Source: an uncultured Methanosarcinales archaeon (GTDB taxonomy: Archaea; Nanobdellota; Nanobdellia; Woesearchaeales; BS150m-G63). Taken from it: 64,000 bases of DNA. The position numbers were made by a program, and so were the translations under genes. The notes below the pieces were generated by a model, which ran no database searches, was not told where the DNA came from, and worked only from the letters and a program-made list of their open reading frames with translations. The number at the start of each line of letters is the position of its first letter. Within the stretch, counting starts at the first letter, position 1. Shown piece after piece: positions 1,282 to 49,884 of this stretch. The stretch is from contig CAZVVW010000005.1 of assembly GCA_964630685.1 (NCBI GenBank), positions 1 to 64,000 of the forward strand, given 5' to 3'.

Positions 1282-1377
1282 GTAAAATGGCAAAAACAAT
1301 AAGACTTGCTACGCTTCGTCTTAAAGCCTTTGCAATTTTAAAAAATCAATAAAAATTAAGTAAAATGGCAAAAACAA
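1282..1377. repeat. AAGAC/GTCTT hairpin element between 18-bp direct repeats of the slyD start region
   Basis: GTAAAATGGCAAAAACAA at 1282-1299 and 1360-1377; hairpin AAGAC-N12-GTCTT between them. Confidence 0.75.
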
Positions 1378-2021
1378 AGATAAAAGATTTCATAGAAGTT
1401 GATTTTACTGGAAGAATAAAAGAAACCAACGAGGTTTTTGATACTACTGTAGCTAAAATAGCTAAAGATAATGGGCTTACTGATAAAAGTGAGTATAAAC
1501 CAACTGTAATTTGTGTTGGTCAAGGACATTTATTCAAAAAAATTGAAGAACAAATAGTTGGTAAAGAAGCTGGAAGAAATTACAAAGTGGAATTAAGTCC
1601 AGAAGAATCTTTTGGTAAAAAAGATGCTAAATTATTTAGAATGATTCCCGTTTCTGTTTTTAAGAAAAATAAAATGAACCCTGTTCCTGGATTACCTTTA
1701 GAAGTTGATGGAATGAGAGGTATTGTAAGAACTGTTGGTGGTGGAAGATGTATGGTTGATTTTAACCACCCTTTATCTGGAAAAGATGTTGTTTATACCA
1801 TTAAAGTAAATAAGATTGTTAAAGATGTTATTGATAAAGTTAAATCTATAATTGAAATGGATTTAAGGGTTAATGAATTTAAAGTTGAACAAAAAGATAA
1901 AAGTAAGGGTATAAATATTATCTTTGAGGAAAAAGTTGCAAAACATTTCAATGATGAAATGAAAAAAGCAGTTGAGAAAAGGGTTAAAGACTTAGTGGGT
2001 GTTAAAGTAAATATTAAGTGA
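1365..2021 (+). CDS. slyD: FKBP-type peptidyl-prolyl cis-trans isomerase (archaeal long type, SlyD-like)
   Basis: DFIEVDFTGRIKETNEVFDTT, PEESFG, VDFNHPLSGK. Confidence 0.9.
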   Translation: MAKTKIKDFIEVDFTGRIKETNEVFDTTVAKIAKDNGLTDKSEYKPTVICVGQGHLFKKIEEQIVGKEAGRNYKVELSPEESFGKKDAKLFRMIPVSVFKKNKMNPVPGLPLEVDGMRGIVRTVGGGRCMVDFNHPLSGKDVVYTIKVNKIVKDVIDKVKSIIEMDLRVNEFKVEQKDKSKGINIIFEEKVAKHFNDEMKKAVEKRVKDLVGVKVNIK

Positions 2022-2126
2022 TTCTAGGTATATTCATATTGTTCTTCTATATATATTGCTGTACCGAAATGTTTTTAAAAAAGGGTGAGTTAATCTTTAT
2101 TTAAGTAAAACGTGGGGGGAAATAAT

Positions 2127-3764
2127 ATGAGTTCAGTACAACCTATATTTATAATGCCAGAAGATTCAGAAAGAGCTTCTGGAAAAAATGCACAAAAGAT
2201 GAATATTTCTGCTGCCAAACAAGTTGCAGAAGCTGTAAAATCCACTTTAGGTCCTAAAGGAATGGATAAAATGCTTGTTGATTCTATGGGTAATGTTACT
2301 GTTACCAATGATGGAGTTACTATCCTAAATGAAATGTCTATAGAACATCCTTCTGCTAAAATGATTGTTGAAGTCGCAAAAACCCAAGAAACTGAAGTTG
2401 GGGATGGTACTACAACTGCTGTTATTTTGGCTGGTGAATTATTAAAAAAATCGGAAGATTTACTTGATCAAGAAGTTCATCCTACTGTAATCATCAAAGG
2501 GTATAGGATAGCTGCTGAAAAAGCACAGGTTGTACTTAATAATATTGCAGAAAACATTTCCGAACATAATAATGAATTATTAAAAAATATTGCAATTACT
2601 GGTATGACTGGCAAAGGCGCTGAAGTTGCTAAAGAAAAACTTAGTGAACTTGCAATGGGTGCTGTTAAAAGTGTAATGGAAAAAGAAAATGGTTCTATTA
2701 ATATTGATTTGGATAACATTAAAATAGAAAAAAAGGTGGGTGCTTCTGTTGAAGATTCTGAACTTGTTGAAGGGATTATTCTAGATAAAGAAAAAATACA
2801 CCCTGGAATGCCTAGAATTGTAAAAAACGCCAAAGTTGCATTAATTGATTCATCTATTGAAATAAAAAGTACTGAAATAGATGCAAAAATACAAATTACA
2901 GATCCTGGACAAATGCAGGCTTTCTTAGACCAAGAAGAAAAAATGATCAAGGGTATGGTGAATAAAATTGTGAAAAGTGGTGCAAAGGTAGTTTTTTGTC
3001 AAAAAGGGGTTGATGATATTGCTCAACATTTTTTAGCTAAAAATGATATGTATGTTTGTAGGAGAGTTAAAGCGAGTGATATGAAAAAATTAAGCAGAGC
3101 TACTGGCGCCAAAATAATCACAAATTTAGATGACTTGAGCAAAAATGATTTAGGTAATGTGGGAGTTGTTGAAGAATCCAAAGTTGGAGATGAAGAAATG
3201 ACTTATGTTAAAAAATGTAAAAACGCTAAATCTGTTACTTTACTTTTGAGGGGTGGAACAGAACATGTTACTGACGAAATAAAAAGAGCTATGGATGATG
3301 CTGTTGGAGATGTGGCTGCTGCACTTAAAATAGGGAAAATTGTTGGTGGTGCAGGAAGTATTGAGATAGAACTATCACGAAATATTAGTCATTTCGCAAG
3401 TAGCTTGTTTGGACGAGAAAGATTAGCTGTACAAGCTTTTGCTGATGCTATGGAAGTGATTCCGCGAACATTGGCAGAAAATGCAGGGCTTGACCCTATT
3501 GATGTGATTACAGAAATGAAAGCAATGCATGATAAAGGTAAAAAATGGGCTGGCGTTGATGTTATTAGTGGTAGGACAGTTGATGCTTGGAAAAATGGGA
3601 TAATTGAACCTTTGAAGATAAAAACTCAGGCACTTAGTTCTGCAGCTGAAGTTGCTACTATGATTTTAAGGATTGATGATGTAATTATGAGTAATAGTAG
3701 TAAAGAAGGGGGAGCTCCAATGGGAATGCCCTCAGGTGGAATGAGTGGAATGCCTCCCATGTAG
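2127..3764 (+). CDS. ths: thermosome (group II chaperonin) subunit
   Basis: [35 protein letters not shown]-type tail; ATG 2127 after G-rich RBS. Confidence 0.97.
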
Positions 3765-3970
3765 GATTGTTTAGTCTACTCATTTGTCTTGATTCTGTTA
3801 TTTTTTTAGGGTGATTTAAAAACTAGTTGAAAAAACTAACTGAAAAAGTGAAGAAATAAAAAAGAATAAGAAAGAATAAAAAAATGGAAAAAATTAATTT
3901 TTTCTGAATAGACCTTTAATTTTGTTTACTGCTCTTGAATACATTGAAGGTTTGTGGTCTGGTTTAGATA

Positions 3971-4870
3971 CTAAATTGGATTTTCTCCTGTTTTATAGAT
4001 GTGAGTTTCATAAAACTGTTTGATCTTTCCAATCAAGTTGGTTTCTTTATTTCCTAATAGTTTTTCTCTCAAATCATTTGCAGATTTTTTTTGTTTCAAA
4101 TAAAGGAATGCATATCCCTCAATTGTAGCTACTTTATCAGCATGACTTAAACCTCTTAGATTAAATATATAATCTCTATTTCCTGTGCTTTCTCTTGAAA
4201 AATAATCTTTTACTTCAGGGGTTATATTAGAATCATTATCTAATTTTTCTCCAAAAGTATTCAGATTTATATCATCCCAATTTGTAGTGTTTTCTTCAAA
4301 TTTATCGATTTCACTTAAAATATAATTCTTAATTTCTGTATTAAAGATATCAAAAATTTGTTTGGTTTCTTCTGTTTTTTCAGCGTATAGTTTAACAAAT
4401 TTCTTTTTTTGTTTTTTAGTAAATAGAGAATCAATAACTTTGTCCTTGAAATGGTCTTTTCTTGCATCTGAAATCTCAATAGTCCCACCAAATAAATGGT
4501 CTTTTCTTAAATAATTTAAATCTTCTTCTGAATGTAATTTATCTAACCACTTATCAACTGCAACTACTGTTTGTTCGTATTTAGCTAAAGGGGCTAAAGA
4601 TTCACTACATTCATAATTTCCATTTTTTATAGCTTCCAAATCATTATCTAATGATTTAATTTGGGTTCTATAATTTCTTGAATTTAAATTAAAATCTTGT
4701 TCAAAAGAACTTCTATCAGCTTTTATATCATTAATAATTGTATTTAAATTTCTTGTTGGTTGTGTAGCTCCTGTATGATAAATTGGATCTAGAGAAGTTA
4801 CTGGCGAAACAAAAGATTGAGTAATAAACAATTGATTATAATCTCTTGCTATGGGCTTATTATTCATCAA
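3971..4870 (-). CDS. hypothetical protein (possibly frameshifted 5' end)
   Basis: 299-aa ORF, no recognisable motif. Confidence 0.6.
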   Translation of the reverse strand: MMNNKPIARDYNQLFITQSFVSPVTSLDPIYHTGATQPTRNLNTIINDIKADRSSFEQDFNLNSRNYRTQIKSLDNDLEAIKNGNYECSESLAPLAKYEQTVVAVDKWLDKLHSEEDLNYLRKDHLFGGTIEISDARKDHFKDKVIDSLFTKKQKKKFVKLYAEKTEETKQIFDIFNTEIKNYILSEIDKFEENTTNWDDINLNTFGEKLDNDSNITPEVKDYFSRESTGNRDYIFNLRGLSHADKVATIEGYAFLYLKQKKSANDLREKLLGNKETNLIGKIKQFYETHIYKTGENPI

Positions 4871-5302
4871 ATTAACTGGAGAAGATGTGTCTGGTAAAGA
4901 ATATATTTTTTTAGTTTTAAATGACTCTTATCTAAATTTTTGATTTTAAAATAATTTTTTCCGAATAAATCAAGAACATTTTGATTTAAATCTTTATTGA
5001 TTTTATAATTAAATGAATTTCTTCTATTTTTAAAATATTTTTTATTTTTCCTATAAGTGACATTTTTTCACCTCCTCAAATGGTGTAACCATTATTGAGT
5101 AATTACTTAATAGTAGTAACTTATTTATAAGTCTTTCTGTTTTTTTCTGAAAATCTTTCAGAAATGTGTTTAGCGCTTTTTTTATGAAATATTGTATTAA
5201 CTTAGATATAATCTTTTTAAAAAACGAAAACATTATAAATTAATAAACAATTAGTTGTGTTAAGTTTAAGGATATTTATATTCAAAAAAAGTGGTGATTA
5301 AT

Positions 5303-5794
5303 ATGGCTGATAAAGAACCTTTTGAAATTGTACCTAAAAAAGAAGTTGATGATCTTAAAAAAGATGTTAAGGAACTCAAAGAAAATCCCTTGGGATCTAG
5401 TTCTTCTGGTAATGAGTTAATTAATTCTGTTGGTAGATTAACTCAAAGTATGGATAATATGTTTGAATTGTTCAAGGTTGCTAATAAAGAAATAAAAGAA
5501 GAAGCGAGCACTCTTGAATTTATTAAAAAAATTACACCTTTGTTTGATAATCTAAATAAAAAATTAGATCATTTGACAGAACAGCATGATAAAATTGCTG
5601 AAGGTATTGTTGCAGTTGCAGAAATGGCGAAAGAGATTAAGGACAGGAATGTGCCTGTAATTCAAAAAACAAAAGAACCAGCCTATGAAGCTGCTGCAAA
5701 ACCTATTCCTGCACCAAGACCTGGAAGAATGGCTCCTCCTTCAGCTGGAATGAGGCCTGCGCCAGGAAGACCTCCGATTGCACCCCCAAGATAA
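5303..5794 (+). CDS. hypothetical coiled-coil protein with Pro-rich tail
   Basis: ORF with GGTGA RBS; helical body then PAPRPG../PPIAPPR tail. Confidence 0.7.
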   Translation: MADKEPFEIVPKKEVDDLKKDVKELKENPLGSSSSGNELINSVGRLTQSMDNMFELFKVANKEIKEEASTLEFIKKITPLFDNLNKKLDHLTEQHDKIAEGIVAVAEMAKEIKDRNVPVIQKTKEPAYEAAAKPIPAPRPGRMAPPSAGMRPAPGRPPIAPPR

Positions 5795-5795
5795 G

Positions 5796-6365
5796 ATGGT
5801 GGAAGAAACGGATTCTAATAATGAGAAAGAAATAGATATTAAGAGAGTAAAATATTTTTTAAAGCATGTTTTTGGAGCACATAAAAAAGTCGATGATAGA
5901 AATAAAGCACGGGATGAGTTAAATAATCATTTTGAAAAACTGAGGAACACGCCAGGGATTAGTAAAACAAAAAGGATTAATGATGGATTGGATGTGCTTA
6001 GAGAAAAAATGCACAATGTGCTGAAAAAAGAGAAAGATATTATTTCTTATCGTGAAATTGAATCTGAAAAAATTGCTGGTTTAATGGAAGAGGTAAGAGT
6101 TTTGAAAGAGGAATTAACCAAAGTTAAAGATGAAAAAAAATCTAAAGTTGTTGAAGTCAAAGAAAAGATTGTTAAAAATAATAAACCCAAACCTCTTCAA
6201 GTAAAAACTAAAAAACCATCAAAAACAGTAAGATTACTTAAAGATAAAATAAAAGAATTGGAACTTGTTCATAAAAAATTCAAAAAAAGTGGAAAACATA
6301 AAAAAGAATTAAAGATAATTGAAACTAAATTAAAATCATTTAAAGCTAAACTTAAAAAATCTTAA
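5796..6365 (+). CDS. hypothetical basic coiled-coil protein
   Basis: Lys/Glu-rich ORF starting 1 nt after the preceding stop. Confidence 0.65.
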   Translation: MVEETDSNNEKEIDIKRVKYFLKHVFGAHKKVDDRNKARDELNNHFEKLRNTPGISKTKRINDGLDVLREKMHNVLKKEKDIISYREIESEKIAGLMEEVRVLKEELTKVKDEKKSKVVEVKEKIVKNNKPKPLQVKTKKPSKTVRLLKDKIKELELVHKKFKKSGKHKKELKIIETKLKSFKAKLKKS

Positions 6366-6532
6366 AGATCTTTCGCCATAACTGTTTTTCTGCCATTAGA
6401 TTCTGCACGAGAAATCGCTTCTATAATAAGTTTTTGCACTTTACTATTTAATGCGTCTGCAAAATCGCCTGCAACATTGTATTTTCCAACAACATTCTTT
6501 ATATTTGATTTAACTATTAAATTGTCTGACAT
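6362..6532 (-). CDS. small histone-fold protein (DUF1931/face-to-face-like), 56 aa; not in ORF track
   Basis: MSDNLIVKSNIKNVVGKYNVAGDFADALNSKVQKLIIEAISRAESNGRKTVMAKDL; histone RKTVxxxD motif; AGGTGAT RBS. Confidence 0.85.
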   Translation of the reverse strand: MSDNLIVKSNIKNVVGKYNVAGDFADALNSKVQKLIIEAISRAESNGRKTVMAKDL

Positions 6533-6590
6533 TTGTATCACCTGTGTTATTATTTGTGAAAGTAATTTATAAATTTTTGTCTTATTTTAT

Positions 6591-6705
6591 TTATTTATGG
6601 CAACAAGAAGACTATTGTCTTCAGGTAGCTATAAATGATTCTTATTTATGGCAACAAGAAGACTATTGTCTTCAGGTAGCTATAAATGATTCTTATTTAT
6701 GGCAA
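6591..6705. repeat. two exact 51-bp tandem copies of an AAGAC/GTCTT hairpin element at the gltX stop
   Basis: 6591-6641 = 6642-6692; each begins TTATTTATGGCAA, the same 13-mer as the gltX 3' end (6693-6705). Confidence 0.9.
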
Positions 6706-8390
6706 AACCAAAACACTAATTTATTTTTTGATTTTTTATCTAATCTGCAGAAGCCAAAACGCTCAAACTGAATAATATCGCCTTCTTTAAGTTTAGATGT
6801 TAATGGTTCTGCTAACCCTTTTAAGGTTGTATTGTTAGGCATTAGTACTTCTACTATTGTTAACTTCTCTTCTGTTGGGAGCCAATGTATAATCTCATCT
6901 CCTTTTTGCCTATAGGATTCTGGCGAAGTTGAATCAAAAACTAATTTTTTTCCTTGTTTTTGGAAAGTTAAACAATCCATCAATCTGTATAGTTTTTTAT
7001 CTTTTAATGTATCTGAATCTTCTTTAGTTATGTAAAAAGAATCGCTGGTTTTTAATGTCCTATTGCCTCTTTTAGGGTAATCTGGATGAAGTTTCAATTT
7101 TACTTCTCTTTTTTCTGCTTTTTCTATTTTAATCTTTATGGGGTTGGGGATGAAAAAGTAACGATTACTTTTTAGCTCAAGAATTGATTTATTGAAGGAG
7201 TTTAGTGCTTTAAAAAATTCTTTTGATGTGATTACTTTGTCTACTAAAGATAATCCAATTTGTTTGGTGTATTCAATAAATGCATTTGGTTGATACCCCC
7301 TCCTTCTAAGCGCTTCTAAAAAAGGAAGTCTTATATCATCCCAACCAGAAAAATCGCCTTTTTCTATTCTTTCTTTAGTTTTACTACAAGAGATTTCTAA
7401 GCCTTTGAATTTGTACCTTCCAATAAAATATGTTTTAGGAATTTGTTTATTGAGCACTTTATACATTAATTCTTGTCTTTTGGCATTATCTGCATGGTCT
7501 TTTCCACGAATTATGTGGGTCATTCCTGCTGAAATATCATCAACAGTTACTGAAAAATTCATTAAGGGCCAAACCCTGTATTTGGTGCCTTGTCTTGGAT
7601 GTTTTGATTCATTTATTCTTGCTAAAGGAAAATCCCTCATTGCTGGATTGTTGTGCGCCATGTCTGCTTTAAATCTTAAAACTGCTTCTCCTTGTTTGAA
7701 TCCTTTTTTGTTAAGCATTTTTTCCCATCTTTCAATATTTTCTGTTATTGAAAAATATCTGCAAGGGCAATTTTCTTTATTTTTTGAATATTGTTTGAAT
7801 TTTTCAGGATCACATGTACAAACATATGCTTTGCCTTTTTTTATGAATTTTTCAGCATATTTGTAATAAGTTTCCATCCTATCTGACTGAATCCATACTT
7901 CCGATACATTTCCAAATATCCAATCAGCATCTCTTGGTAATAGTTTGTATGCTGGAATATAGATATTGTCTGGATTTGTATCTTCAATTCTCAGTATGAA
8001 TTTTCCTTTGTATTTTTTGGTGTAAAGAGAAGTCAGTGCCCCTGTGATTGCATGTCCTATATGCATAGGTCCAGAAGGCGATGGTGCTAAACGCATTATG
8101 ACTCCATTTTCTGTATTTTCTAGCTCTTTTAGCTTTTTTTCTTCTTTTGGTCTGGTTTCTAACAGTTCTGGAGCTAATTTTTTTAATTGGTTTAGTTGTG
8201 CTTCTTGAGGTAGGGAATTTACTTCACTAATTATTTTATTTATCTCTGGAACAAGAGTTTTCATATCATTTTTAGCAGAAGGAATGTCTCCAATTATTTT
8301 TGGAATTACACTCTTTAGTTGTGCCTTTCCCTTATATTTAACAGCATTTTGAAGAGTATATTTTAGCACTACTTTTTTTATATTGGGCAT
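6693..8390 (-). CDS. gltX: glutamate--tRNA ligase (archaeal type)
   Basis: RLAPSPSGPMHIGH, LRIEDTNP, THIIRGKDH, GWDDIRL, IQFERFGFCRLD. Confidence 0.97.
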   Translation of the reverse strand: MPNIKKVVLKYTLQNAVKYKGKAQLKSVIPKIIGDIPSAKNDMKTLVPEINKIISEVNSLPQEAQLNQLKKLAPELLETRPKEEKKLKELENTENGVIMRLAPSPSGPMHIGHAITGALTSLYTKKYKGKFILRIEDTNPDNIYIPAYKLLPRDADWIFGNVSEVWIQSDRMETYYKYAEKFIKKGKAYVCTCDPEKFKQYSKNKENCPCRYFSITENIERWEKMLNKKGFKQGEAVLRFKADMAHNNPAMRDFPLARINESKHPRQGTKYRVWPLMNFSVTVDDISAGMTHIIRGKDHADNAKRQELMYKVLNKQIPKTYFIGRYKFKGLEISCSKTKERIEKGDFSGWDDIRLPFLEALRRRGYQPNAFIEYTKQIGLSLVDKVITSKEFFKALNSFNKSILELKSNRYFFIPNPIKIKIEKAEKREVKLKLHPDYPKRGNRTLKTSDSFYITKEDSDTLKDKKLYRLMDCLTFQKQGKKLVFDSTSPESYRQKGDEIIHWLPTEEKLTIVEVLMPNNTTLKGLAEPLTSKLKEGDIIQFERFGFCRLDKKSKNKLVFWFCHK

Positions 8391-8511
8391 ATAGTGTTTA
8401 AGAGATAACCTGTATAAAAATCTTTCTTATATCTCTGTTTTTCTAAAAATATGGGGACTTTTAGAAAGATTTATAAATTAAGTAGGGGTTATAGAGTATC
8501 CGAGGGAAACC

Positions 8512-8706
8512 ATGGGACGAATAAAAACACAATTAGTAAAAAGGATAACAAACGATTTAATTAAAGCACATAGTAAAGAACTTAAAAAGGACTTTGATGA
8601 AAACAAAGGAATTATAGGAAAATTTGCAAAAATTCCCTCTACAAAGATGAGAAATGTGATTGCGGGATATGTGACTAGAAGAATGAAAAATGATGAAGAT
8701 TTATAA
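8512..8706 (+). CDS. rps17e: 30S ribosomal protein S17e
   Basis: MGRIKT..VKR, DFDENK, STKMRNVIAGYVT. Confidence 0.95.
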   Translation: MGRIKTQLVKRITNDLIKAHSKELKKDFDENKGIIGKFAKIPSTKMRNVIAGYVTRRMKNDEDL

Positions 8707-8750
8707 TCATTTTTAGCTGAAATAAAATAATAACTAGTGAGGTAACTAAT

Positions 8751-9032
8751 ATGGGATCAGACAACTCGATTTTTGTTGGCGGAAAGCCTTTTATGAACTA
8801 TGTGACTGGAATAGTTATGCAATTTACTACAAAAGGTGCTGAAGAAGTTATAGTGAAGGCAAGAGGTAAGTTTATTTCTCGAGCAGTGGATATATCTGAA
8901 GTAACAACTAAAAGATTCTTAAAAGACCAAGTAAAAGTAATTGGTATTGAAATAGACTCAGAAGAATTCAAAAACAAAGAAGGCAAAGACGTAAGGGTTT
9001 CGACAATAGAAATCACTTTGAAAAAAGAATAA
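8751..9032 (+). CDS. albA: DNA/RNA-binding protein Alba
   Basis: IFVGGKPFMNYV, VKARGKFISRAVD, VSTIEITL. Confidence 0.95.
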   Translation: MGSDNSIFVGGKPFMNYVTGIVMQFTTKGAEEVIVKARGKFISRAVDISEVTTKRFLKDQVKVIGIEIDSEEFKNKEGKDVRVSTIEITLKKE

Positions 9033-9049
9033 TTGATTGATGAGCGACC

Positions 9050-9163
9050 ATGAAATTAATAAAATTAACAAGAGTAGTCTGGGGTGAACTCAAGGAACTA
9101 TTCAAAAAGAAAGAAGCTAAATATCTTTGGGTAGGGCCTGGTAAGAACCCTTTTGAGAATTAA
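9050..9163 (+). CDS. putative 37-aa microprotein
   Basis: MKLIKLTRVVWGELKELFKKKEAKYLWVGPGKNPFEN directly after alba, followed by a T-rich tract. Confidence 0.45.
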   Translation: MKLIKLTRVVWGELKELFKKKEAKYLWVGPGKNPFEN

Positions 9164-9231
9164 TTTTTTCTTTATTTTTACTTATTTTTACATTACTTTT
9201 TTATATTAAAGATTCTTTTAATATTAGTTAT

Positions 9232-9305
9232 GGCCCTATAGCATAACCTGGATAGTGCATCCGGCTTCGGACCGGCTGATGAGGGTTCGAATCCCTCTAG
9301 GGTCA
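9232..9305 (+). tRNA. tRNA-Arg(TCG)
   Basis: Acceptor GGCCCTA/TAGGGTC, anticodon loop CT-TCG-GA, T-arm GAGGG-TTCGAAT-CCCTC; CCA not encoded. Confidence 0.9.
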
Positions 9306-9387
9306 TTTTTTATTTTAATCTAGATAAAATCACCTAAGAAAAAGAAAAAAAATTGTATTAAAATTTGGTTCTTGTTGATTATTTATT

Positions 9388-9567
9388 CTATTTATTTATT
9401 GCTTTTTGGAATTTGTGGATTCCTATGATGAGGAAAGCTACAGTCCACCAATTCAATGCCCAAAAACTCCACCATCCTAAATCTTGACCTAGATATAAAA
9501 TACCTACAATCAAAACAAGAAGTCCCCAAGTTTTTGAAGAGTGGCAACAACATTCTTTTTTAGCCAT
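9388..9567 (-). CDS. small membrane protein
   Basis: GGAGGT RBS; two hydrophobic, Trp-rich segments. Confidence 0.7.
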   Translation of the reverse strand: MAKKECCCHSSKTWGLLVLIVGILYLGQDLGWWSFWALNWWTVAFLIIGIHKFQKAINK

Positions 9568-9649
9568 ATCGATTACCTCCAATATTTTTGTTTTATGATT
9601 ATCTTATCAATTAATGAAAACTATTTTATGTTAATTATAATAAAATTTA

Positions 9650-9931
9650 TCAAGGTGATTGTTGACAGTTGTATAAGAATACTGCTTTCTCATTTCCGGT
9701 TTTTACAACAGTTGCAGAACAATATTCTCTTTCTTCAAATTCCCCTTCTGTCAAATTCATTATTTGGCCCTCTCTGATATCTGTAAGCACATCTATTGCT
9801 TCTCCAGCTAAAGAAGAAGTTTTACCAAGACTAAATAGAAATATAAACGATGCTAAAATAGCAAAAGCGATTACTCCAACAAGAACTATCTTTAAGGTTT
9901 TATCGACATCTAAATCACTCTTTTTTGGCAT
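9650..9931 (-). CDS. hypothetical membrane-anchored protein
   Basis: N-terminal TM helix, upstream TATA-like TTTATATA. Confidence 0.6.
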   Translation of the reverse strand: MPKKSDLDVDKTLKIVLVGVIAFAILASFIFLFSLGKTSSLAGEAIDVLTDIREGQIMNLTEGEFEEREYCSATVVKTGNEKAVFLYNCQQSP

Positions 9932-10180
9932 TTTAAAGACTAAGAATGGTAAATATATAAAAGTTTCGGAAAACCAAAAATTTATTAATGAATGATGTTT
10001 AAATTATTTTAGAATGGTGGTGATATGAAAAGAACATTTATTCTTTCAAATAGGGTGTTTCTTAAAAAGGGAGTTATACTATTACTTATCTTACAAATAT
10101 TTTGTGAATAATGTATTTATGTGCTTAATTGTCTTGCAAAAGAAAGACAATTAATTAAAAACCTTGGAGGTGTTTGGTGA

Positions 10181-10552
10181 ATGAAAAAAATAGTGTATAA
10201 AGGAATACATAAATTAAATAAACAAGAAGAGAAAAAATTAAATGTATTGGCCAAAGAGTATTTTGAAAAAATAAAATTAGTGTTAAAGGACTTGAATTCT
10301 ATACAAGTTAATGTTGATACTCATCATACAGAAGGTAAAAGAAAAAAATATGAGTTAAACATTAAAGCAATTGCACCTAGTAATGTTTTAAGAACTCAGG
10401 TTGATGAATGGGATCTAGCGAAAACAACCCATAAAGGATTTAAAAAAATTATTAAAGAAGCCCAACATAAAACGAAATATTCTGGGAAAAAAGTGAAAGG
10501 TAAATGGCGTATGGCTGGGCTACTTAAGAAAACAGGACTGTTTAGAAGGTGA
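10181..10552 (+). CDS. HPF/RaiA-like (ribosome hibernation factor-fold) protein, putative
   Basis: KKYELNIKAI..EWDLAKTTHKGFKKI resembles the archaeal HPF-like domain; GGAGGTG RBS. Confidence 0.55.
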   Translation: MKKIVYKGIHKLNKQEEKKLNVLAKEYFEKIKLVLKDLNSIQVNVDTHHTEGKRKKYELNIKAIAPSNVLRTQVDEWDLAKTTHKGFKKIIKEAQHKTKYSGKKVKGKWRMAGLLKKTGLFRR

Positions 10553-10642
10553 GATAGAAAAGTTTATAAATGGTAAATTAATCCTTGAATGTAAGAAAGA
10601 GAAGAAAAGAAGCAAGAGGTTTGCTTTTTCTCTAAATATAAG

Positions 10643-10981
10643 ATGAAACCTCTATTACCAAGTTTACGGGAAAAGAAAAGGTATTTGGCGTTTGAGATTA
10701 TCTCAAGCAAAAAAGTAAATAAAATGCCTTACGAAGAAATACAGAAATCTATGTTAGGTTTACATGGAAGTGTAGGTTTAGCTGATGCTGGATTAATATT
10801 CCTTAAAAACAAATGGAACACAGAATTACAAAGAGGTATAGTGAAAGTGAGTCATCGGAGTGTTGATGACTTAAAAGGAACATTATGTTTTGTTGATAAA
10901 ATTAATAATACAGAAAGCATCATAAAAAGTGTTGGTGTTTCTGGAATTTTAAAAAAGGCAGAGGAAAAATATTTGAGATAA
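10643..10981 (+). CDS. rnp2: ribonuclease P protein Pop5/Rpp14
   Basis: MKPLLPSLREKKRYLAFEIIS, GVSGILKKA; upstream of psmA. Confidence 0.92.
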   Translation: MKPLLPSLREKKRYLAFEIISSKKVNKMPYEEIQKSMLGLHGSVGLADAGLIFLKNKWNTELQRGIVKVSHRSVDDLKGTLCFVDKINNTESIIKSVGVSGILKKAEEKYLR

Positions 10982-11012
10982 AAAATTTAAAACTAGGAGG
11001 AGATAAAATAAA

Positions 11013-11738
11013 ATGGATCAAATGTCACATCAAGCAATGGGTTATGACAGGGCAATTACAATGTTTAGTCCTGACGGAAGATTGTTACAAGTAGAATATG
11101 CTAAAAAAACTGTAAAGCAAGGCTCAACTGCTATTGGAATAGTATGTAAAGATGGTGTTTTGTTGGTTACAGATAAAAGAATAGTTAGTAAATTAGTGGT
11201 TACTGGAGCTATTGAAAAAATATGGCAAATAGATGACCATGTTGGTGTTACTGCATCCGGAATATTATCTGATGCAAGAGTGTTAATAGAAAATGCTCAA
11301 GTAAAAGCACAACAACATAGAGTTACTTATAATAATGAAATAGATATCTTGAGTGTAGTTAAAGATATATGTCAATTAAAACAAATTTGCACTCAAAGTG
11401 GCGGATTAAGACCTTTTGGTGTAAGTTTATTGGTTGCAGGAGTAGATGAAACAGGCCCTGTATTATTTGAAACAGATCCTATTGGAATCTATTTTAGGTA
11501 TAAAGCAGCTGCAATCGGAGAAGGAGAAGCAGAAGTTGAACAAATGCTTGAAAAATATTACAAAGAAGATATGACTCTTGAAGAAGGATTGAAACTTGCA
11601 TTAAAAGCATTAAGTAAATCTCTCGGAAAAGGTTTCAAAGCAGAAAGGGTAGATGCAGCATATATCTCTGTTAAAGATAAAAAATTCCAAAAATTAGGAA
11701 GAAAAGATATTGATAAAGCTAGTAAGGGAAACAAGTGA
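11013..11738 (+). CDS. psmA: proteasome subunit alpha
   Basis: GYDRAITMFSPDGRLLQVEYA, RPFGVSLL. Confidence 0.97.
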   Translation: MDQMSHQAMGYDRAITMFSPDGRLLQVEYAKKTVKQGSTAIGIVCKDGVLLVTDKRIVSKLVVTGAIEKIWQIDDHVGVTASGILSDARVLIENAQVKAQQHRVTYNNEIDILSVVKDICQLKQICTQSGGLRPFGVSLLVAGVDETGPVLFETDPIGIYFRYKAAAIGEGEAEVEQMLEKYYKEDMTLEEGLKLALKALSKSLGKGFKAERVDAAYISVKDKKFQKLGRKDIDKASKGNK

Positions 11739-11747
11739 TGTAGATGT

Positions 11748-11785
11748 AAAACCAGAAGACTCATTAACATTCGTCTTCAGGCCTT
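11748..11785. repeat. AAGAC/GTCTT hairpin element, intergenic copy
   Basis: AAAACCAGAAGAC-N12-GTCTTCAGGCCTT; 28 of 38 positions identical to 1293-1330 by manual alignment. Confidence 0.7.
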
Positions 11786-11824
11786 GTTCACCCCTCGTAA
11801 AAACAGAACTCGGAGGTTCACAAG

Positions 11825-12538
11825 ATGGTAGGAATAACACATGATCATGAAAAGATTCATCTGAATCTTGGAAGAATAAAGAAGGAAGGGGAAAACTTTG
11901 AGATAGTTGTAGACCCTGATTTAGCTATTGAATTTAAAGATGGAAAAGAAGTAGATATTAGAGAAGTGTTAAAGAGTGAGGAAGTGTTTTCTGATGCTAA
12001 AAAAGGATTATTGTGTTCTGAAACAAGAATGAAAGAAGTGTTTGGCACTGAAGATGTTTTAGAAGTTGCAAAAATAATCTTAAAAGAAGGTGAAGTCCAA
12101 TTAACTGCAGAGTACCGGCAAAGTTTAATTGAAGCAAAAAGAAAACAAATTATAGAAAATATTCACAAAAATGCTGTTGATCCAAGTAATGGATTGCCTC
12201 ATCCAGTAGCAAGGATAGAGAATGCATTTGATGAAGCAAAGGTGCGGATTGATGAATTCAAATCTGCTAAAGATCAACTACAAGACATACTAAAACAGAT
12301 AAGGCCAATTTTACCAATAAGTTTTGAATTAAAAGAAATTGAGATAAAAATACCAGCAGAACATGCTGGAAAGGCTAATTCAATTGTTAGGAATCTTGCT
12401 AGTATAAAAAATGAAAATTGGCTGAACGATGGTTCTTGGTCAGTTGTTGTTGAGATTCCTGCTGGAATACAACAAGAATTATTTGACCGATTAAATGAAG
12501 TTGTTCATGGCGAATTAGAATCAAAAATATTAAAGTAA
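11825..12538 (+). CDS. ribosome maturation factor SBDS
   Basis: FEIVVDP, EVFSDAKKG, GEVQLTAEYR, PHPVARIENA. Confidence 0.95.
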   Translation: MVGITHDHEKIHLNLGRIKKEGENFEIVVDPDLAIEFKDGKEVDIREVLKSEEVFSDAKKGLLCSETRMKEVFGTEDVLEVAKIILKEGEVQLTAEYRQSLIEAKRKQIIENIHKNAVDPSNGLPHPVARIENAFDEAKVRIDEFKSAKDQLQDILKQIRPILPISFELKEIEIKIPAEHAGKANSIVRNLASIKNENWLNDGSWSVVVEIPAGIQQELFDRLNEVVHGELESKILK

Positions 12539-12557
12539 AATATAGGAGGAAAATACG

Positions 12558-13376
12558 ATGAGTAAATTATTAGTAAAAGAAAGAGACGTTGTTGTCCCTG
12601 GCGAAGATATTGTAGAAGGGATGGATTACTTACCATCTAAAGGAACATATAGGGAAGGAGATAAAATAGTTGCTTCCCAATTAGGATTAGTTAGGATAGA
12701 TGGAAAAGTGATAAAAGTTATACCACTATCAGGAAAATATTCCCCTAAAAGGGGAGACACAGTAATCGGAAAAGTGATTGATGTGTTAATGAGTGGTTGG
12801 AGAATAGACATGGATGGAGCATATTCTGCAATGTTGGGATTAAAAGAAGCTACTTCTTCATTTATAGCAAGAGGTGCTGATTTAACAAAATATTATGATA
12901 TTGGAGACTATATCGCAGTTAATATTACAAATGTTACAAGTCAAAAATTAATTGATGTTAGTATGCGAGGTCCTGGGCTAAGGAAACTTGAAGGTGGCTG
13001 TTTTATTGAAGTCAACACAAGCAAAGTGCCTAGAATTATAGGTAAACAGGGTTCAATGATTTCTATGATAAAACAAGCAACTGATTGTAGGGTAATTGTT
13101 GGTCAAAATGGTATTGTTTGGATATCTGGAACTCCAGAAATGGAAGCTATTGTAATTGATGTAATTAAAAAAATTGCAAAAGAAGCGCATGTTCCAGGAT
13201 TAACAGATACAATTCAAAAATATTTGGACAAAAAAGTTCCAAAGAAAAAACCTGTTGAACCTAAAGCTGTAGCTACAGAAGCTGAAGAAGAATCAAAAAA
13301 AGATTCTTCAACCAAAGAAGAAATTAAAGATACTAAGGAGAAAGAAAACACCCCAAGTAAGGAGGAGAAAAAATGA
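12558..13376 (+). CDS. rrp4: exosome RNA-binding protein Rrp4
   Basis: VVPGE, S1 domain, KVPRIIGKQGSMI KH motif, GQNGIVWI; charged tail. Confidence 0.95.
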   Translation: MSKLLVKERDVVVPGEDIVEGMDYLPSKGTYREGDKIVASQLGLVRIDGKVIKVIPLSGKYSPKRGDTVIGKVIDVLMSGWRIDMDGAYSAMLGLKEATSSFIARGADLTKYYDIGDYIAVNITNVTSQKLIDVSMRGPGLRKLEGGCFIEVNTSKVPRIIGKQGSMISMIKQATDCRVIVGQNGIVWISGTPEMEAIVIDVIKKIAKEAHVPGLTDTIQKYLDKKVPKKKPVEPKAVATEAEEESKKDSSTKEEIKDTKEKENTPSKEEKK

Positions 13377-16606: not shown

Positions 16607-17623
16607 TCAAGAAATAACATTCACTGGCTTTTTCTTTAAAAAAGAAGTAATATTTGTGATTGTTGTGTCAACAATTCTCTTTATTGCTTCTTTACTATTA
16701 AAGGCATTGTGAGGAGTAAATACTACATTATCCATTTTAAATATTTCATAGTCTTTGACTAATTGCTTCCATTTTTTTAAGTGTTTTTCTTTGTAAAGTC
16801 TTTGTTTTTCTTCTCTCACCATCTCTTCACCTTCAATCACATCTAAACCAGCTCCAGCAATGTGTTTTTTCTTTAAAGCAGAGTATAATGCCTCTGTTTC
16901 TATGAGTCCCCCTCTGGCTGTATTAATCAGGATTGCGCCCTTTTTGATTTTGCTTATATTCTCTTTGTTAATTATGTGATGAGTATATTTATTCAATGGA
17001 GCATGTAATGTAATTATATCTGAATGTGATAATAGGTTATCTAAATCAGAATATTCAAAACCAAGTACTTCTGAAAGAAATTTATTTTTTCTCACATCAT
17101 AAGCTAAAACTTTCATGCCAAACCCTTTTGCGATTTTGATTACATGCAAACCAATATGGCCTGCACCAATTACACCCAAAGTTTTTCCTTTCAAATCAAA
17201 ACCAGTTAATCCATCTATTGAAAAATCATCTTTTAATGTCCTTACATAAGATTTGTGAATGTGCCTTGAAAGGGATAATATTAATCCAAAAGTGTGTTCA
17301 GCTACAGTGTTTTCCCCATAAAAAGGTACATTAGTAACAACTATTTTCTTTTTTCTACATAATTTTGTATCAATATGGTCAAAACCAGTTGATCTTGTAG
17401 ATATCATCTTTAAGTTAGGAAATTGCTTGATGACTTCTTTATTAATTTTAGAATTAATAAAAACAGAAATTATATCTGCATTTTTTGCTTTTTTGATGTT
17501 CTCGGGAGTTGTGTGCTCATTAAAGAAATAAAGGGTATGACTTTTTAATTGATCTCTTATGTGTGGTTTTTCCCATGCTTCTGAACGTTTAATTCCAAAA
17601 AATGCTATTTTTATCTTAATCAC
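16607..17623 (-). CDS. D-2-hydroxyacid (D-lactate-like) dehydrogenase
   Basis: STRSTGFDHID, VAEH, GAGHIG, INTARGGLI, GLDVIEGE, TPHNAF; start uncertain. Confidence 0.9.
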   Translation of the reverse strand: MIKIKIAFFGIKRSEAWEKPHIRDQLKSHTLYFFNEHTTPENIKKAKNADIISVFINSKINKEVIKQFPNLKMISTRSTGFDHIDTKLCRKKKIVVTNVPFYGENTVAEHTFGLILSLSRHIHKSYVRTLKDDFSIDGLTGFDLKGKTLGVIGAGHIGLHVIKIAKGFGMKVLAYDVRKNKFLSEVLGFEYSDLDNLLSHSDIITLHAPLNKYTHHIINKENISKIKKGAILINTARGGLIETEALYSALKKKHIAGAGLDVIEGEEMVREEKQRLYKEKHLKKWKQLVKDYEIFKMDNVVFTPHNAFNSKEAIKRIVDTTITNITSFLKKKPVNVIS

Positions 17624-17707
17624 CTCGTCTGATTATTAAAATGGTTTAAGTATTTAATTTTAACTATTTATAAAAAAAGAAAAAATAATGATTATGTTCG
17701 CTTAAAA

Positions 17708-18085
17708 TTATTTTAAGTTCCATAAACCATGTAAATTACAGTATGCTCTTGCTGTGATATCTTCTGTTTTTATGTTGAATTCTGCTGTTGGTGCATCTCC
17801 AGGATTTAAGTCTTGCCGATACACTTTTCCGCCTGCTATAACTTCTATCCATTCAATATAATGATCAGATTCCATCGGATGTTCAACAGAGCCCACTTTT
17901 ACTTTGACTCCAGTTTCAGTTTTTTCTATAACTGGAACGTGTTTCTCTTGTGCAGCATCTTCTGTATTTTCAGTCATTAATTTCATAGGTTTATTGCAAC
18001 ATACTAATTCACCTACACCACCATGCAATACTTCAACAATATTCCCACAAATATTGCATTTATAGATTTGTTTTTGTTCAGCCAT
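17708..18085 (-). CDS. dfx: desulfoferrodoxin (2Fe superoxide reductase)
   Basis: [37 protein letters not shown]. Confidence 0.96.
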
Positions 18086-36920: not shown

Positions 36921-37613
36921 TTATTTGTTATCTTTTTTGTTTTTGTTTTTATTATTTTTTCTTTTTTTATGGTGGGGATTTTCTAAACCAATTAATTCAC
37001 ATATACCAAAATAAAGTGGACCTAATAATATATATGAAATTTGCATCCAAAGTGGTGCATGAATACAATTACAGAAAGGTAATCCAACATAACTTGCTGT
37101 TGCTAAATTTTTTATGTTAAATGTGTGGTATGCTGTTGCCTCAACAGAAATTAATAATAGCCAATAAAAAGCTGTAAAAAGAAGCATTTTTTTTATTAAA
37201 CTGTGTTTTTTTATTAGGTGTTCCCAGTGAGAATATATCAAATATGCTGCAAATAACCCTATCGCCCAAGTAAAAAGTGGATAAGAATTTAAACCAAAAA
37301 TTAATAACATTTTTTGATTATATCCATACTGTGAATTTGCAATTAACACCCACATTAATGAAACTGCAGACGCGATTAACAAATGGGTCACTGCCTTTTT
37401 TCTTGCTGTTAAAAATAAATAAGGATATAACAAAAAATAAACAGCAATCATCAAAAAATCAGGACGAAATACGCCAAGTAAAAGAACTATGATAATATAA
37501 AGAGCTTTATCTGCAATGATTAATTGATTTTCCCATTTATGAAACTTGTATTTAATTCTTTTTTTGGATGAATTAAATCTTTTGGATATCTCTTTTTTTA
37601 TTTGGTTTTTCAT
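36921..37613 (-). CDS. membrane protein
   Basis: About 6 TM helices. Confidence 0.7.
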   Translation of the reverse strand: MKNQIKKEISKRFNSSKKRIKYKFHKWENQLIIADKALYIIIVLLLGVFRPDFLMIAVYFLLYPYLFLTARKKAVTHLLIASAVSLMWVLIANSQYGYNQKMLLIFGLNSYPLFTWAIGLFAAYLIYSHWEHLIKKHSLIKKMLLFTAFYWLLLISVEATAYHTFNIKNLATASYVGLPFCNCIHAPLWMQISYILLGPLYFGICELIGLENPHHKKRKNNKNKNKKDNK

Positions 37614-37631
37614 ATGATTTTTGTTTTTGGA

Positions 37632-37880
37632 TTATCTCCATTCGCTGTGGCCAAACTGAACTAATAAATCAAAGCCAAGATGTTTTATGTTTGGCGTATC
37701 ACATGCTCCAAAACAAGAGCCTGCCCAGAGTACTGCTTGTGTGTTTGTTTTTTTATGAATCAAATCAGTTATCTCTTTTGCTTTTGGTTTTAATCCATCA
37801 GGTAATTGGATGCACACTAGTTTAGCTTTTTCTTTTTTTATTTTAGTGATTACTTTTTCCAGCTCAAGGTCATAGTTCAT
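37632..37880 (-). CDS. diphthamide synthesis Dph2-like protein, N-terminal domain only (82 aa)
   Basis: VCIQLPDGLK, SCFGACD, LLVQFGHS. Confidence 0.8.
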   Translation of the reverse strand: MNYDLELEKVITKIKKEKAKLVCIQLPDGLKPKAKEITDLIHKKTNTQAVLWAGSCFGACDTPNIKHLGFDLLVQFGHSEWR

Positions 37881-38074
37881 AAGATAAAAAAAGTGAAAGA
37901 TGTATAAAAAACTATCTAATGTTAGTTAATAGAAGAAGACAAAAGTTTTTTGTGAATTTTAGTCTTCTTCAAACATAGTAGAGGACATAAATTATTAGTA
38001 ATTTATGTACTCCTACTATAATAAGGTAAATTTTATATAGTTAATTACCTTTAGATAAATTATTCTACTTAAAA

Positions 38075-38218: not shown

Positions 38219-38229
38219 TATTTTCTAAT

Positions 38230-39914: not shown

Positions 39915-39987
39915 AATTTGGAATATGGAAAAAATAGTTTATAATATTTTGCAAAAAAATATAAACCAGGAGTTATTTTATTGATAT

Positions 39988-41238: not shown

Positions 41239-41288
41239 TTTTGTTTCAGCAAAGTTTAAAAAGAACAAGAAATAATAAAACTTAGTGG

Positions 41289-44042: not shown

Positions 44043-44054
44043 GTACTGATTTGA

Positions 44055-45212: not shown

Positions 45213-45213
45213 A

Positions 45214-45279
45214 TTGATTGTTGTTGGTTATTTGTTTGTTATTTGTTAGTTTGTTTGTTAGTTTGTTTGTTATTGGTTA
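45214..45279. repeat. degenerate TTTG/TTAG microsatellite
   Basis: GTTATTTGTTTGTTATTTGTTAGTTTGTTTGTTAGTTTGTTTG in the gap-pgk spacer. Confidence 0.7.
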
Positions 45280-45280
45280 T

Positions 45281-48704
<3,424 letters not shown>

Positions 48705-48743
48705 AATTCACCTCTTTTGTTGAATCTCTTTTTATTTTAAATA

Positions 48744-49280
48744 TTATTGAATATATCTCTTCTTCGCCGAATGAATGCTAAATGCTAATATTCCACCCAT
48801 TATTGCTGTATAAAATTGAAATAAGCCCATTGCTGTTAAAAATACTGTTGGTAGCAAACTTATTTTGACAAATAGATAAGCTATTGAAAATAAAAATGCT
48901 GTTTTAAATGCTGATGCAAATAATAATGTTATCCACTTATTCATTTTTTTCTGTAAATTGAATTTTTTGAATGTGAAAACTAATATTGCGTTTCCAACCC
49001 ATATAAATGGAATCATGTATAATAAAAATATTGTAAAAGGTCCAAAAATTAATCCTTTTGTTAATACAGCTAAACTTGGAAGAACAATAATTGGGATTGT
49101 TTTGTAGATCTTAAAATTTAATGCTGCTAAGATTAATGATGCATTAACTATTGTTCCAACTAGTAGTTGTGGTTGTCCAATTAAGAAAGGAACAAAAAAA
49201 CAAATTACAGAATAAATAACTAATTCAATGTTCTCTTGAAGGTAAGTTAATGGGTATTCTTGAATAAATAAGTATTTCAT
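48744..49280 (-). CDS. membrane protein (ECF S-component-like)
   Basis: QLLVGTIVNA motif, about 5-6 TM helices; divergent from hydC. Confidence 0.6.
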   Translation of the reverse strand: MKYLFIQEYPLTYLQENIELVIYSVICFFVPFLIGQPQLLVGTIVNASLILAALNFKIYKTIPIIVLPSLAVLTKGLIFGPFTIFLLYMIPFIWVGNAILVFTFKKFNLQKKMNKWITLLFASAFKTAFLFSIAYLFVKISLLPTVFLTAMGLFQFYTAIMGGILAFSIHSAKKRYIQ

Positions 49281-49401
49281 ATCTTCTTCTAGGTTGGATG
49301 TATATAAAAAAGTTTCGTAATGTTTCTTTGATTTAGAGTTTAGTAACATTTATATAAATAAGTATAATCTAAATGGATATCTTTTAATAAAAAGGTGACT
49401 G

Positions 49402-49806
49402 ATGGATAAAATCTTAATAAATATTCTAAAAAAGGTCCAAGATAAGTATGGTTATATTTCTGAAAAATCTATGAAAAATATTAGTGTAAAATATAATGTT
49501 CCTTTAGCTAAATTATATGGTGTTGCAACATTTTATGCTATGTTTAAAACTGAAAGGCAAGGAAAAAACGTTATTGAAATCTGTGGAAGTCCGAGTTGTA
49601 TGCTCAATAATGGTCAAAAAATAGAAGATTTTCTGGAAAAAGAATTAAAAATAATGGTTGGTAAAACAACTAAAAATAAAAAATTTTCTTTGTATAAAAC
49701 TTCTTGTATTGGCTGTTGTGATGAAGCTCCTGCAATGTTGCTTAATGGGAAACCTTGTACAAGTCTTACTATTGAAAAAATAAAAAAGATTTTAAAAAAT
49801 TGTTAA
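49402..49806 (+). CDS. hydC: [FeFe]-hydrogenase subunit HydC (NuoE-like, 2Fe-2S)
   Basis: GVATFY, ICGSPSC, CIGCCDEAP. Confidence 0.9.
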   Translation: MDKILINILKKVQDKYGYISEKSMKNISVKYNVPLAKLYGVATFYAMFKTERQGKNVIEICGSPSCMLNNGQKIEDFLEKELKIMVGKTTKNKKFSLYKTSCIGCCDEAPAMLLNGKPCTSLTIEKIKKILKNC

Positions 49807-49884
49807 AAAAATTAAAAAATGCAAACAATAAGATTAAAAATAAATCTTAAAGTTTGCAAATTTAAAAAAATTAAAAAATGCAAA
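49803..49884. repeat. hairpin element between 23-bp direct repeats of the hydB start region
   Basis: TTAAAAAAATTAAAAAATGCAAA at 49803-49825 and 49862-49884; TGCAAAC-AAT-AAGATT-N7-AATCTT-AAA-GTTTGCA. Confidence 0.75.

Follow-up and report, generated by a model that had tools for sequence, protein, structure and literature searches.

Genomes of reduced DPANN archaea are thought to be poor in classical mobile elements. Among the small repeats with which any newly found family would be compared, MITEs (miniature inverted-repeat transposable elements) are bounded by a pair of conserved terminal inverted repeats, with a target duplication that is short and fixed in length, and mycobacterial interspersed repetitive units (MIRUs) vary in tandem copy number. 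A process rather than an element, quasi-palindrome mutagenesis (intra-strand template switching), makes imperfect inverted repeats, or keeps them complementary, without selection. Published accounts describe MIRUs as mobile units placed at start codons, for which a coupling to the gene has been proposed (PMC12548453), and repetitive extragenic palindromes (REPs) as short extragenic imperfect palindromes with a GTAG or CGTC tetranucleotide at one end (PMC3733652). Insertion with long target duplication (Nobusato et al. 2000; Furuta, Abe and Kobayashi 2010) is described for kilobase-sized restriction-modification units in bacteria, where repeats had to be 30 bp or more by the criterion used and no archaeal case passed the screen as that source presents it (PMC2853133). 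Here we describe a lineage-specific family of small hairpin cassettes, referred to by their AAGAC/GTCTT stem, which was found in the first 64,000 nucleotides of a contig from a Woesearchaeota-type DPANN archaeon (the window, C5:1-64000) and in related genomes, and we compare it with these systems.

The genome that holds the window (G000; 936 kb in 35 contigs, 31% G+C, 96.6% complete) was compared with two genomes of the same genus (G001 and the unpublished G002), one genome of the same family (G003) and 37 other genomes of the order. The archaeal origin of the window was supported by its thermosome, proteasome alpha, SBDS and diphthamide-synthesis genes. A strict scan with the motif C-NNN-AAGAY-loop-RTCTT-NNN-G identified cores at 1297-1326 (site 1), 6604-6625 and 6655-6676 (site 2), 11752-11781 (site 3) and 49826-49852 (site 4), plus two weak cases consisting of A and T only. 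The five cores lie where a sequence-only reading of the window had placed them. AAGACN{3,16}GTCTT was seen five times in the window against 0.98 expected, a count reached in none of 100 shuffles, and four of the five matches are at these sites.

Additional copies of the dispersed family proposed by that reading were found far above chance and restricted to the lineage. In G000, 16 of 29 AAGAC...GTCTT hairpins have the C and the G where expected. The pattern CAAKAAGACN{3,15}GTCTTMARG matched 11, 16, 4 and 3 times in G000, G001, G002 and G003. It had no match in the remaining 37 genomes from the order, and none of the 41 matched the reversed pattern, which served as a control. A covariance model (R1) built from 23 aligned copies returned 17, 27, 11 and 8 matches in the four genomes at E<=0.01 (22, 33, 14 and 12 at E<=0.1), and none in the 37 others at E<=0.01. 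Since R1 was trained on G000 and G001 only, the matches in G002 and G003 are independent; within G000 and G001, the trained copies match by construction and the untrained matches are independent. Among the genomes searched, the family is thus confined to one family of small-genome Woesearchaeota-type DPANN archaea. Metagenome relatives of the glutamyl-tRNA synthetase (GluRS) locus at site 2 (13 loci, 136 kb, one of them close at 78% identity over 1.5 kb) gave no model match at E<=0.1 and are uninformative for empty sites. Rfam 15, applied to the window at gathering threshold, returned three tRNA matches only and matched no hairpin site.

The copies are extragenic and mostly precede genes. None of the 22 G000 matches lies inside an open reading frame (ORF) of at least 100 aa, although such ORFs cover 87.6% of the genome. 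A sense ORF of at least 60 aa starts no more than 200 nt downstream at 24 of 27 loci, and a divergent one is present at 6 of 27; with a 100-aa cut-off and a 250-nt window, a downstream gene was found at 15 of 22 loci in G000 and at 13 of 17 in G001. The downstream genes are unrelated and include those for an FKBP isomerase, a NuoF-like protein, SBDS, ribosomal protein P1, a Toprim protein and proteins with signal-peptide-like N-termini. Another, with the first codons MCGIFGY as in GlmS, may be GlmS-like. A scan of positions 1-13000 for terminator-like and promoter-like signals flagged no site, and its totals were at the shuffle level.

The core has the form C-AA-K-AAGAC-loop-GTCTT-M-AA-G, with a loop of 3-14 nt that mostly begins with T. 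The base before AAGAC and the base after GTCTT are UA in 14, GC in seven, AU in one and unpaired in one of the 23 copies from two genomes. Because these bases pair, and because folds agree, the core has a stem of 6 bp that a 2x2 internal loop (A.A) separates from the closing C-G pair, and the 3x3 internal loop of the sequence-only reading had to be replaced. In the alignment of 23 copies the closing C-G is present in all, AAGA and TCTT are invariant and the AA/AA loop is kept. The covarying pair separates two subfamilies, A (CAAT...AAAG) and B (CAAG...CAAG-G). Variants in which both arms have changed (AAGAG/CTCTT, AAGGT/ACCTT and CAGAT/ATCTG) preserve the hairpin.

Nearly all copies are laid out as X, core, antiX, spacer and again X, where X consists of 11-35 nt of gene 5' signals and antiX is an imperfect inverted copy of it. 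The direct repeats observed measured 11, 13, 17, 18, 22, 26 and about 35 nt. The upstream copy (X1) and antiX lengthen the core to a hairpin of 40-60 nt, and the downstream copy (X2) serves the gene; the minimum-free-energy hairpin pairs X1 and leaves X2 outside. These flank arms are complementary in register, with 80.6% of cells paired compared to 64.4% after shuffling (0 of 500 shuffles reach the observed value) and to 33-50% with the partner arm shifted by 1-3 columns. At most loci X carries the ATG or the Shine-Dalgarno (SD) sequence of the downstream gene. In subfamily A it comprises the start codon and first codons (e.g., AAAATG-N3-9-C), and in subfamily B the SD and its spacer (GGAGGTAAAAAAC, then ATG). 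A TATA-like box lies inside X at G001:C20:31317, G001:C23:12261 and G000:C7:28102, and the stop codon of the neighbouring gene at site 4 and C2:4841. The left junction between X1 and core is sharp, and the right side is variable, with the sequence before X2 differing from copy to copy.

The strand antisense to the gene folds more stably at 23 of 27 loci (-20.3 vs -12.4 kcal/mol at site 1). Mismatches in the ungapped flank arms, counted in mRNA sense, amount to 29 A.C and 18 G.T in 312 cells. GU wobble was tried as a sign of a folding RNA strand and was not decisive, because the bias comes mostly from a single conserved A.C next to the closing pair. Larger forms are also present. A long form of 93 nt, whose loop holds additional G+C-rich hairpins, was seen three times, copies are nested at C1:102186, and tandem arrays, which are frequent, reach five units at G001:C24 and three at G001:C4, the latter against one unit in G000. 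Contigs C15 and C16 of G001 terminate in 93-nt units. Runs of N split three G000 arrays (C1 about 102300-102420, C1 about 132300 and C3 about 3990-4080), so the assembly collapsed there and the true unit numbers are uncertain.

The flanks of every locus were aligned between G000 and G001 regions for an orthologous-site comparison. Twenty of 25 G000 loci could be mapped to G001 (four had no ortholog match and one a flank that was too short), as could 16 of 17 G001 loci to G000. Empty orthologous sites, sought as a mark of a mobile element, are present at 15 of the 20 mappable G000 loci and at 11 of the 16 mappable G001 loci, and they carry a single X. The remaining G000 loci are filled in both genomes (C4:66259, site 3, C5:68325 and C7:28102) or ambiguous (C12:2374), and five of the mapped G001 loci are shared. 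The window itself holds two empty sites, at about 17555-17718 and within 59367-59763; their counterparts in G001 are an array of two units (C12:74677-74765) and one cassette whose X is TATA-like (C12:32077-32124).

Individual loci differ in age. Site 1 is empty in G001, G002 and G003, where the block 1300-1377 is missing upstream of the FKBP orthologs, and was therefore gained in the lineage of G000. At the P1 locus, which lies upstream of the gene for ribosomal protein P1, both G000 and G001 carry the element, and G002 and G003 have an empty site. Site 3 is occupied in G001 by a copy with the stem AAGAG/CTCTT, has a degenerate copy in G002 (model E 0.016) and is empty in G003. Several results depend on the unpublished G002, namely its counts with the pattern and the model, its empty FKBP and P1 sites, this degenerate copy and the example G002:C16:52033. 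Altogether, most copies are species-specific and the family turns over fast within one genus. As a separate observation at the P1 locus, the first 100-plus bases of the P1 gene itself are identical between the two species (G000:C5:68390 onward vs G001:C12) where other flanks are about 78-91% identical, which suggests a recent exchange or very strong constraint.

More than the core appears to move. Subfamily B units from three non-orthologous G000 loci and from the G001 ortholog of the P1 locus align over ~90 columns with 76% mean identity, and the alignment includes antiX, spacer and X2. The string GG[AG]GGTAAAAAAC occurs three times in G000, each time as the X2 of a B copy. At C1:37108, the empty site in G001 reads GGGGGTAAAAT-AAGATG; the X1 of G000 retains that T, the TAAAAAAC of the family is present in X2, and antiX complements X2 perfectly but pairs with X1 at only 8 of 9 positions. 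Additionally, the unit at G000:C13:19934 and one unit of the array at G001:C24 are identical at 88 of 106 positions, including sequence upstream of X1, at loci that are non-orthologous and for which the ortholog in the other species is empty. The gene start at the G000:C13 locus is now ATGAACCAA where the ortholog has ATGAATACT, and the junctions fall in AAAGATT and AATGAA, which are common to unit and native site. Cassettes at C2:4841 and C1:146031 have taken the place of native intergenic sequence with a native SD, and codons 2-4 are changed; the FKBP gene reads ATGGCAAAAACAAAG in G000 and ATGGCAAAGATA in G001 and G002. The sharing of whole units, together with X2 sequences unlike the native start, indicates that X was often carried over from a previous host gene. 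The earlier view that the outer stem is made from host sequence therefore fails in general, as antiX, spacer and X2 of subfamily B are common to three non-orthologous loci.

Genes that could mobilize the cassettes were sought by profile searches for Y1_Tnp (PF01797), TnpB-type zinc ribbon (PF07282) and RVT_1 (PF00078), with DDE, IS110 and other transposase families lying outside the search. Neither Y1_Tnp nor RVT_1 was found in G000, G002 or G003, and the zinc ribbon was found below threshold only. The sequence-only reading had noted that no transposase is in the window; this holds, and the Y1/HUH search of the whole of G000, at its 96.6% completeness, also returned none. G001 alone among the four genomes of the family has a Y1 (IS200-type) transposase gene (C13:10604-10945) and a reverse-transcriptase gene (C3:1410-2051). 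Of the two routes that had been put forward from the sequence, a HUH nuclease is unlikely to be the mover in G000, G002 and G003, and fold-back or template-switch copying is plausible.

Because no mobility enzyme fits the distribution of the family, we tentatively favor a transposase-free spread, in which microhomology-guided copying is followed by slippage, at somewhat short of an even chance. A cassette or array segment would be copied to a further gene boundary with a likeness to its A-rich X, either by template switching guided by microhomology or by ectopic gene conversion. The two X copies would then come in together with the inverted arm, the target would retain a working start, and slippage or unequal exchange between the X repeats could expand, contract or precisely delete units. 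The inverted arm itself may arise by fold-back synthesis, its complementarity being maintained either through quasi-palindrome correction or through selection that keeps the redundant start buried. A further proposal, which we consider doubtful, is that the cassette is selfish without an enzyme of its own, spreading by its homology to start and promoter signals as a portable start region of SD, ATG and first codons that overwrites host starts, with the hairpin both triggering copy-choice and silencing the redundant start.

Several observations weigh against transposase-free copying of imported cassettes. The copying steps are reconstructed from sequence comparison, the homologies they need (6-10 nt) are very short, and the invariance of the core across four genomes looks like a recognition site for a putative protein. 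X2 is native, or nearly so, at five of nine young sites compared, for example at C10:28888 and C5:70673, which also fits a true target duplication by a staggered cut; at site 4, too, X2 equals the native sequence. At the locus shared between G001:C17:33312 and G000:C1:31265, each X1 equals its own X2 down to synonymous codons (TCT AAA vs AGT AAG), and the antiX of G001:C17:33312 follows its own X, ATGTCT pairing with ..ATACAT. Given such gene-specific antiX and native X2 sequences, local copying or local homogenization must also occur, and not only import. In addition, subfamily A units mostly share little more than the core and the type of X (58/79 identical between site 1 and C10, 51/69 between C5:70673 and C2:4841), an all-against-all comparison gave few extended matches, and no near-identical pair of donor and recipient was seen within a single genome.

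The same features would in part suit a non-autonomous element moved in trans by a core-recognizing enzyme, whether an unrecognized nuclease or recombinase or a HUH protein acting on the single-stranded hairpin, with a long and variable stagger whose repair would produce the X duplication. The invariant core, the strict orientation, the sharp left junction with its variable right side and the exact identity of X1 and X2 at young sites are what such an enzyme might leave, the greater stability of the hairpin antisense to the gene looks as if one DNA strand were the substrate, and the copy-richest genome, G001, is the one with the Y1 transposase gene. However, the searches described above found no Y1_Tnp in the three other genomes and the zinc ribbon below threshold only, the duplication varies from 11 to 35 nt, and a conserved right end is lacking. 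Furthermore, simple cut-and-fill does not predict the altered X2 found at several sites or the whole units shared between loci, and we regard the enzyme as an unlikely explanation.

It is more improbable still, in our judgment, that the hairpins are primarily cis-regulatory RNA in 5' leaders (i.e., a protein-binding site, a protective 5' stem or an antiX/X switch) and that their spread is secondary. Their sense orientation and position at start signals agree with such a role, as do mini-ORFs that end near the real start and old copies kept across species with compensatory changes (AAGAC/GTCTT vs AAGAG/CTCTT at site 3, AAGGT/ACCTT, CAGAT/ATCTG, and T-A to A-T in the outer stem of the P1 locus). 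These points have to be set against the species-specific nature of most loci and a copy number that ranges from 1 to 5 between species at one gene. The downstream genes have no common theme, site 2 has no gene on its strand, and no Rfam match was obtained. Conserved mismatches are A.C in mRNA sense and G.U only in antisense, and the paired copy is the redundant upstream X rather than the working start. As for chance hairpins in an A/T-rich genome or duplications caused by assembly errors, the 31% G+C of G000 and the coincidence of its arrays with N gaps could be cited in their favor, but counts far above shuffles and reversed-pattern controls, the same architecture in four separately assembled genomes and single-unit sites inside long contigs (1282-1377) make this explanation extremely improbable.

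Known structures were also compared by eye and were dropped. The hairpins lack the staggered 3-nt bulges of a bulge-helix-bulge motif, the tandem G.A pairs of a kink-turn and the boxes of a C/D-box sRNA. The repeats show no adenine-specific differences, as in the template and variable repeats of diversity-generating retroelements, no fixed duplication of 14-15 bp, as with casposons, and no in-frame take-off and landing, as in programmed translational bypassing. The defining sequence or geometry of an archaeal selenocysteine insertion sequence (SECIS) and of attC sites is missing.

The redundant start may affect expression. X1 contains an ATG in 17 copies, opening seven mini-ORFs of 2-6 codons and ten of 13-26 codons. 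The short ones (7 of the 17) stop at the core, 32-51 nt before the gene start and mostly at the TAA of CAA-TAA-GAC. The long ones cross the hairpin, and seven of the ten end between -10 and +12 nt from the ATG of the gene; an ATGA overlap (-4) is present in one copy only, C5:70673. Judged from these positions, the long mini-ORFs would be compatible with translational coupling or ribosome delivery, as proposed for MIRUs.

The turnover described here affects the positions at which genes are most sensitive and amounts to dozens of small inserts over the divergence of a single genus. If a transposase-free, homology-guided process were indeed responsible, it would constitute a mechanism of genome change that is invisible to annotation pipelines. 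Start codons, SD spacing and N-terminal residues would be rewritten, so that gene-start calls in such genomes would be at risk, and arrays would break assemblies. Should the cassettes prove to be selfish, they would represent a distinct mode of mobility that shuffles gene starts and N-termini in reduced archaeal genomes. The family may also serve as a natural experiment on how much structure archaeal translation starts tolerate.

Within the window, all copies lie on the + strand, and the order of X, hairpin, imperfect reverse complement and X again that had been claimed for three sites was confirmed at sites 1, 2 and 4 with exact X repeats. Site 1 begins with X1 at 1282-1299, an upstream copy of the FKBP gene start region with an ATG at 1287, which forms the 5' arm of the long hairpin and is identical at 18 of 18 positions to X2 at 1360-1377 (period 78). 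Its core (1297-1326, CAAT-AAGAC-loop-GTCTT-AAAG) scored 48.4 bits (E 3.9e-08). Pairing and folding place antiX, the imperfect inverted X1, at 1327-1340 and an A/T-rich spacer at 1341-1359, together the segment 1327-1359. In register with X1, 12 positions of antiX comprise nine Watson-Crick pairs, two A.C and one other. X2 serves the FKBP gene with its ATG at 1365.

Site 2 (6591-6692) consists of two tandem 51-nt units, each with an X of 13 nt, a core (6604-6625 and 6655-6676, 44.1 bits each), an antiX of 13 nt and TTC, and it forms a direct repeat of 64 nt with a period of 51. A third X at 6693-6705 corresponds, on the minus strand, to the last codons and the stop (6693-6695) of the GluRS gene. 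The element is absent in G001. Site 2 is the sole window copy without a downstream gene on its own strand, and its X is similar to the X of the ATGGCAAAAC type found at site 1 and C10:28888, although site 2 has no gene start. The core of site 3 (11752-11781, 35.0 bits) follows the proteasome alpha gene, which stops at 11736-11738, and precedes the SBDS gene (ATG 11825). Similarity between its flanks is weak and old-looking, and site 3 is an old copy.

At site 4, X1 (49804-49825) covers an ATG at 49819 together with the stop codon (49804-49806) of the 2Fe-2S gene that lies upstream, and it is identical at 22 of 22 positions to X2 (49863-49884), which serves the NuoF-like gene (ATG 49878). The segment between them (49826-49862) contains a core of the AAGAT/ATCTT variant (49826-49852) and antiX (49853-49862), and the unit is absent in G001. 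The score of 41.1 bits on the + strand, against 14.7 on the - strand, shows that the model is strand-specific. The possibility that a unit is a diverged tandem duplicate of the 5' end of the gene was assessed at 11 loci and rejected. Only site 4 fits it, its unit being similar to the native sequence that follows X2 (z 3.6; score reached by 4 of 300 shuffles), and at the 10 other loci the score is reached by at least 31 of 300 shuffles. The GAAGAAGAC/GTCTTCTTC hairpin at 37932-37971, which had been listed with the others, was dropped as a family member because it scored only 14.0 bits (E 2.8) with the family model and has no flanking duplicate in the 181 bases around it.

Some additional observations were made in the course of these comparisons. 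In G001, codons 5-12 of the NuoF-like gene on C12 hold a string that resembles the right half of a cassette (GTCTT-AAAG-C-TTTG; compare window 49863-49920), and, judging from this likeness, an old cassette half may have turned into coding sequence there. The match to this ortholog (G001:C12:41068-42183) contains one in-frame TGA. On the minus strand of the window at 36921-37880, a diphthamide-synthase match is limited to an 82-aa ORF (37632-37880) and to profile positions 1-56 of 302, and the adjacent ORF (36921-37613, 230 aa) is without a match in Pfam. Possibly the gene is truncated or split, or else highly diverged. A second class of short-range direct repeats, with periods of 129-146 nt and without the AAGAC core, was seen in G000 at C13:5927, C7:40578, C2:68326, C3:69164 and C10:8032. 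These repeats are G+C-rich and resemble tRNA 3' ends. Possibly the AAGAC family belongs to a broader phenomenon.

Literature searches brought up no account of elements like these in DPANN or Woesearchaeota. The AAGAC cassettes are a real, lineage-specific family of small non-autonomous repeats, and the combination of a duplicated start, an inverted arm and a travelling start region was not found described for any known system. Quasi-palindrome mutagenesis would explain the inverted arm and the compensatory stem changes; being a process and not an element, it explains neither the dispersal nor the direct duplication. Riboregulators that sequester the SD (RNA thermometers) pair the SD or AUG in use, whereas the AAGAC hairpin pairs the upstream X1 and leaves X2 free. 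Insertions with long target duplication, as presented in their source, share with the cassettes a long and variable direct duplication, the lack of a transposase or integrase, a frequent location at gene ends and discovery by genome comparison (PMC2853133). Correspondingly, empty AAGAC sites hold a single X, and the inserts are 38-120 nt long, non-coding and without a mobility gene. The AAGAC cassettes differ in having direct repeats of mostly 11-26 nt and no gene cargo, and the restriction-modification inserts are described in that account without a conserved hairpin and not as a multi-copy family (PMC2853133).

The proposal of a REP/MITE-like element stands in part. The family is dispersed, lineage-restricted and non-coding, behaves as mobile and forms tandem arrays. 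MITEs, such as Correia elements and archaeal MITEs, are likewise small, non-coding and hairpin-forming, with flanking direct repeats and differences in presence between strains. In contrast to them, the AAGAC family is conserved only in the ~30-nt core next to X1, its right end is variable, its duplication spans 11-35 nt, and its structure includes the flank in inverted form. We know of no REPs that are flanked by a duplicated target or that prefer gene starts. REPs, and the REPINs mobilized by REP-associated tyrosine transposases (RAYTs), are described as imperfect palindromes of 20-40 nt that are extragenic, lineage-specific, non-autonomous and present in many copies (PMC3733652). The AAGAC family shares the many-copy extragenic palindrome, at 17-27 copies each in G000 and G001 and with none of the 22 G000 matches lying inside an ORF. 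It differs in that no RAYT (Y1) gene was found in three of the four genomes and in that the foot of the hairpin carries no GTAG or CGTC, the 23-copy alignment showing CAAK...MAAG flanks instead.

The closest described analogue is the MIRU of mycobacteria. MIRUs are bacterial, and the start region is doubled only in the AAGAC cassettes; to our knowledge, MIRUs have neither a conserved hairpin core nor an inverted copy of the flank. Sequence homology between the two is not expected across domains. With respect to the 4-nt overlap of MIRUs with the gene start, a single AAGAC copy lies at -4, and the ends of most long mini-ORFs fall within the range given above. The tandem copy number of MIRUs varies, and AAGAC arrays likewise vary between species. 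Both are short, non-coding and apparently mobile, and both are inserted at start codons.

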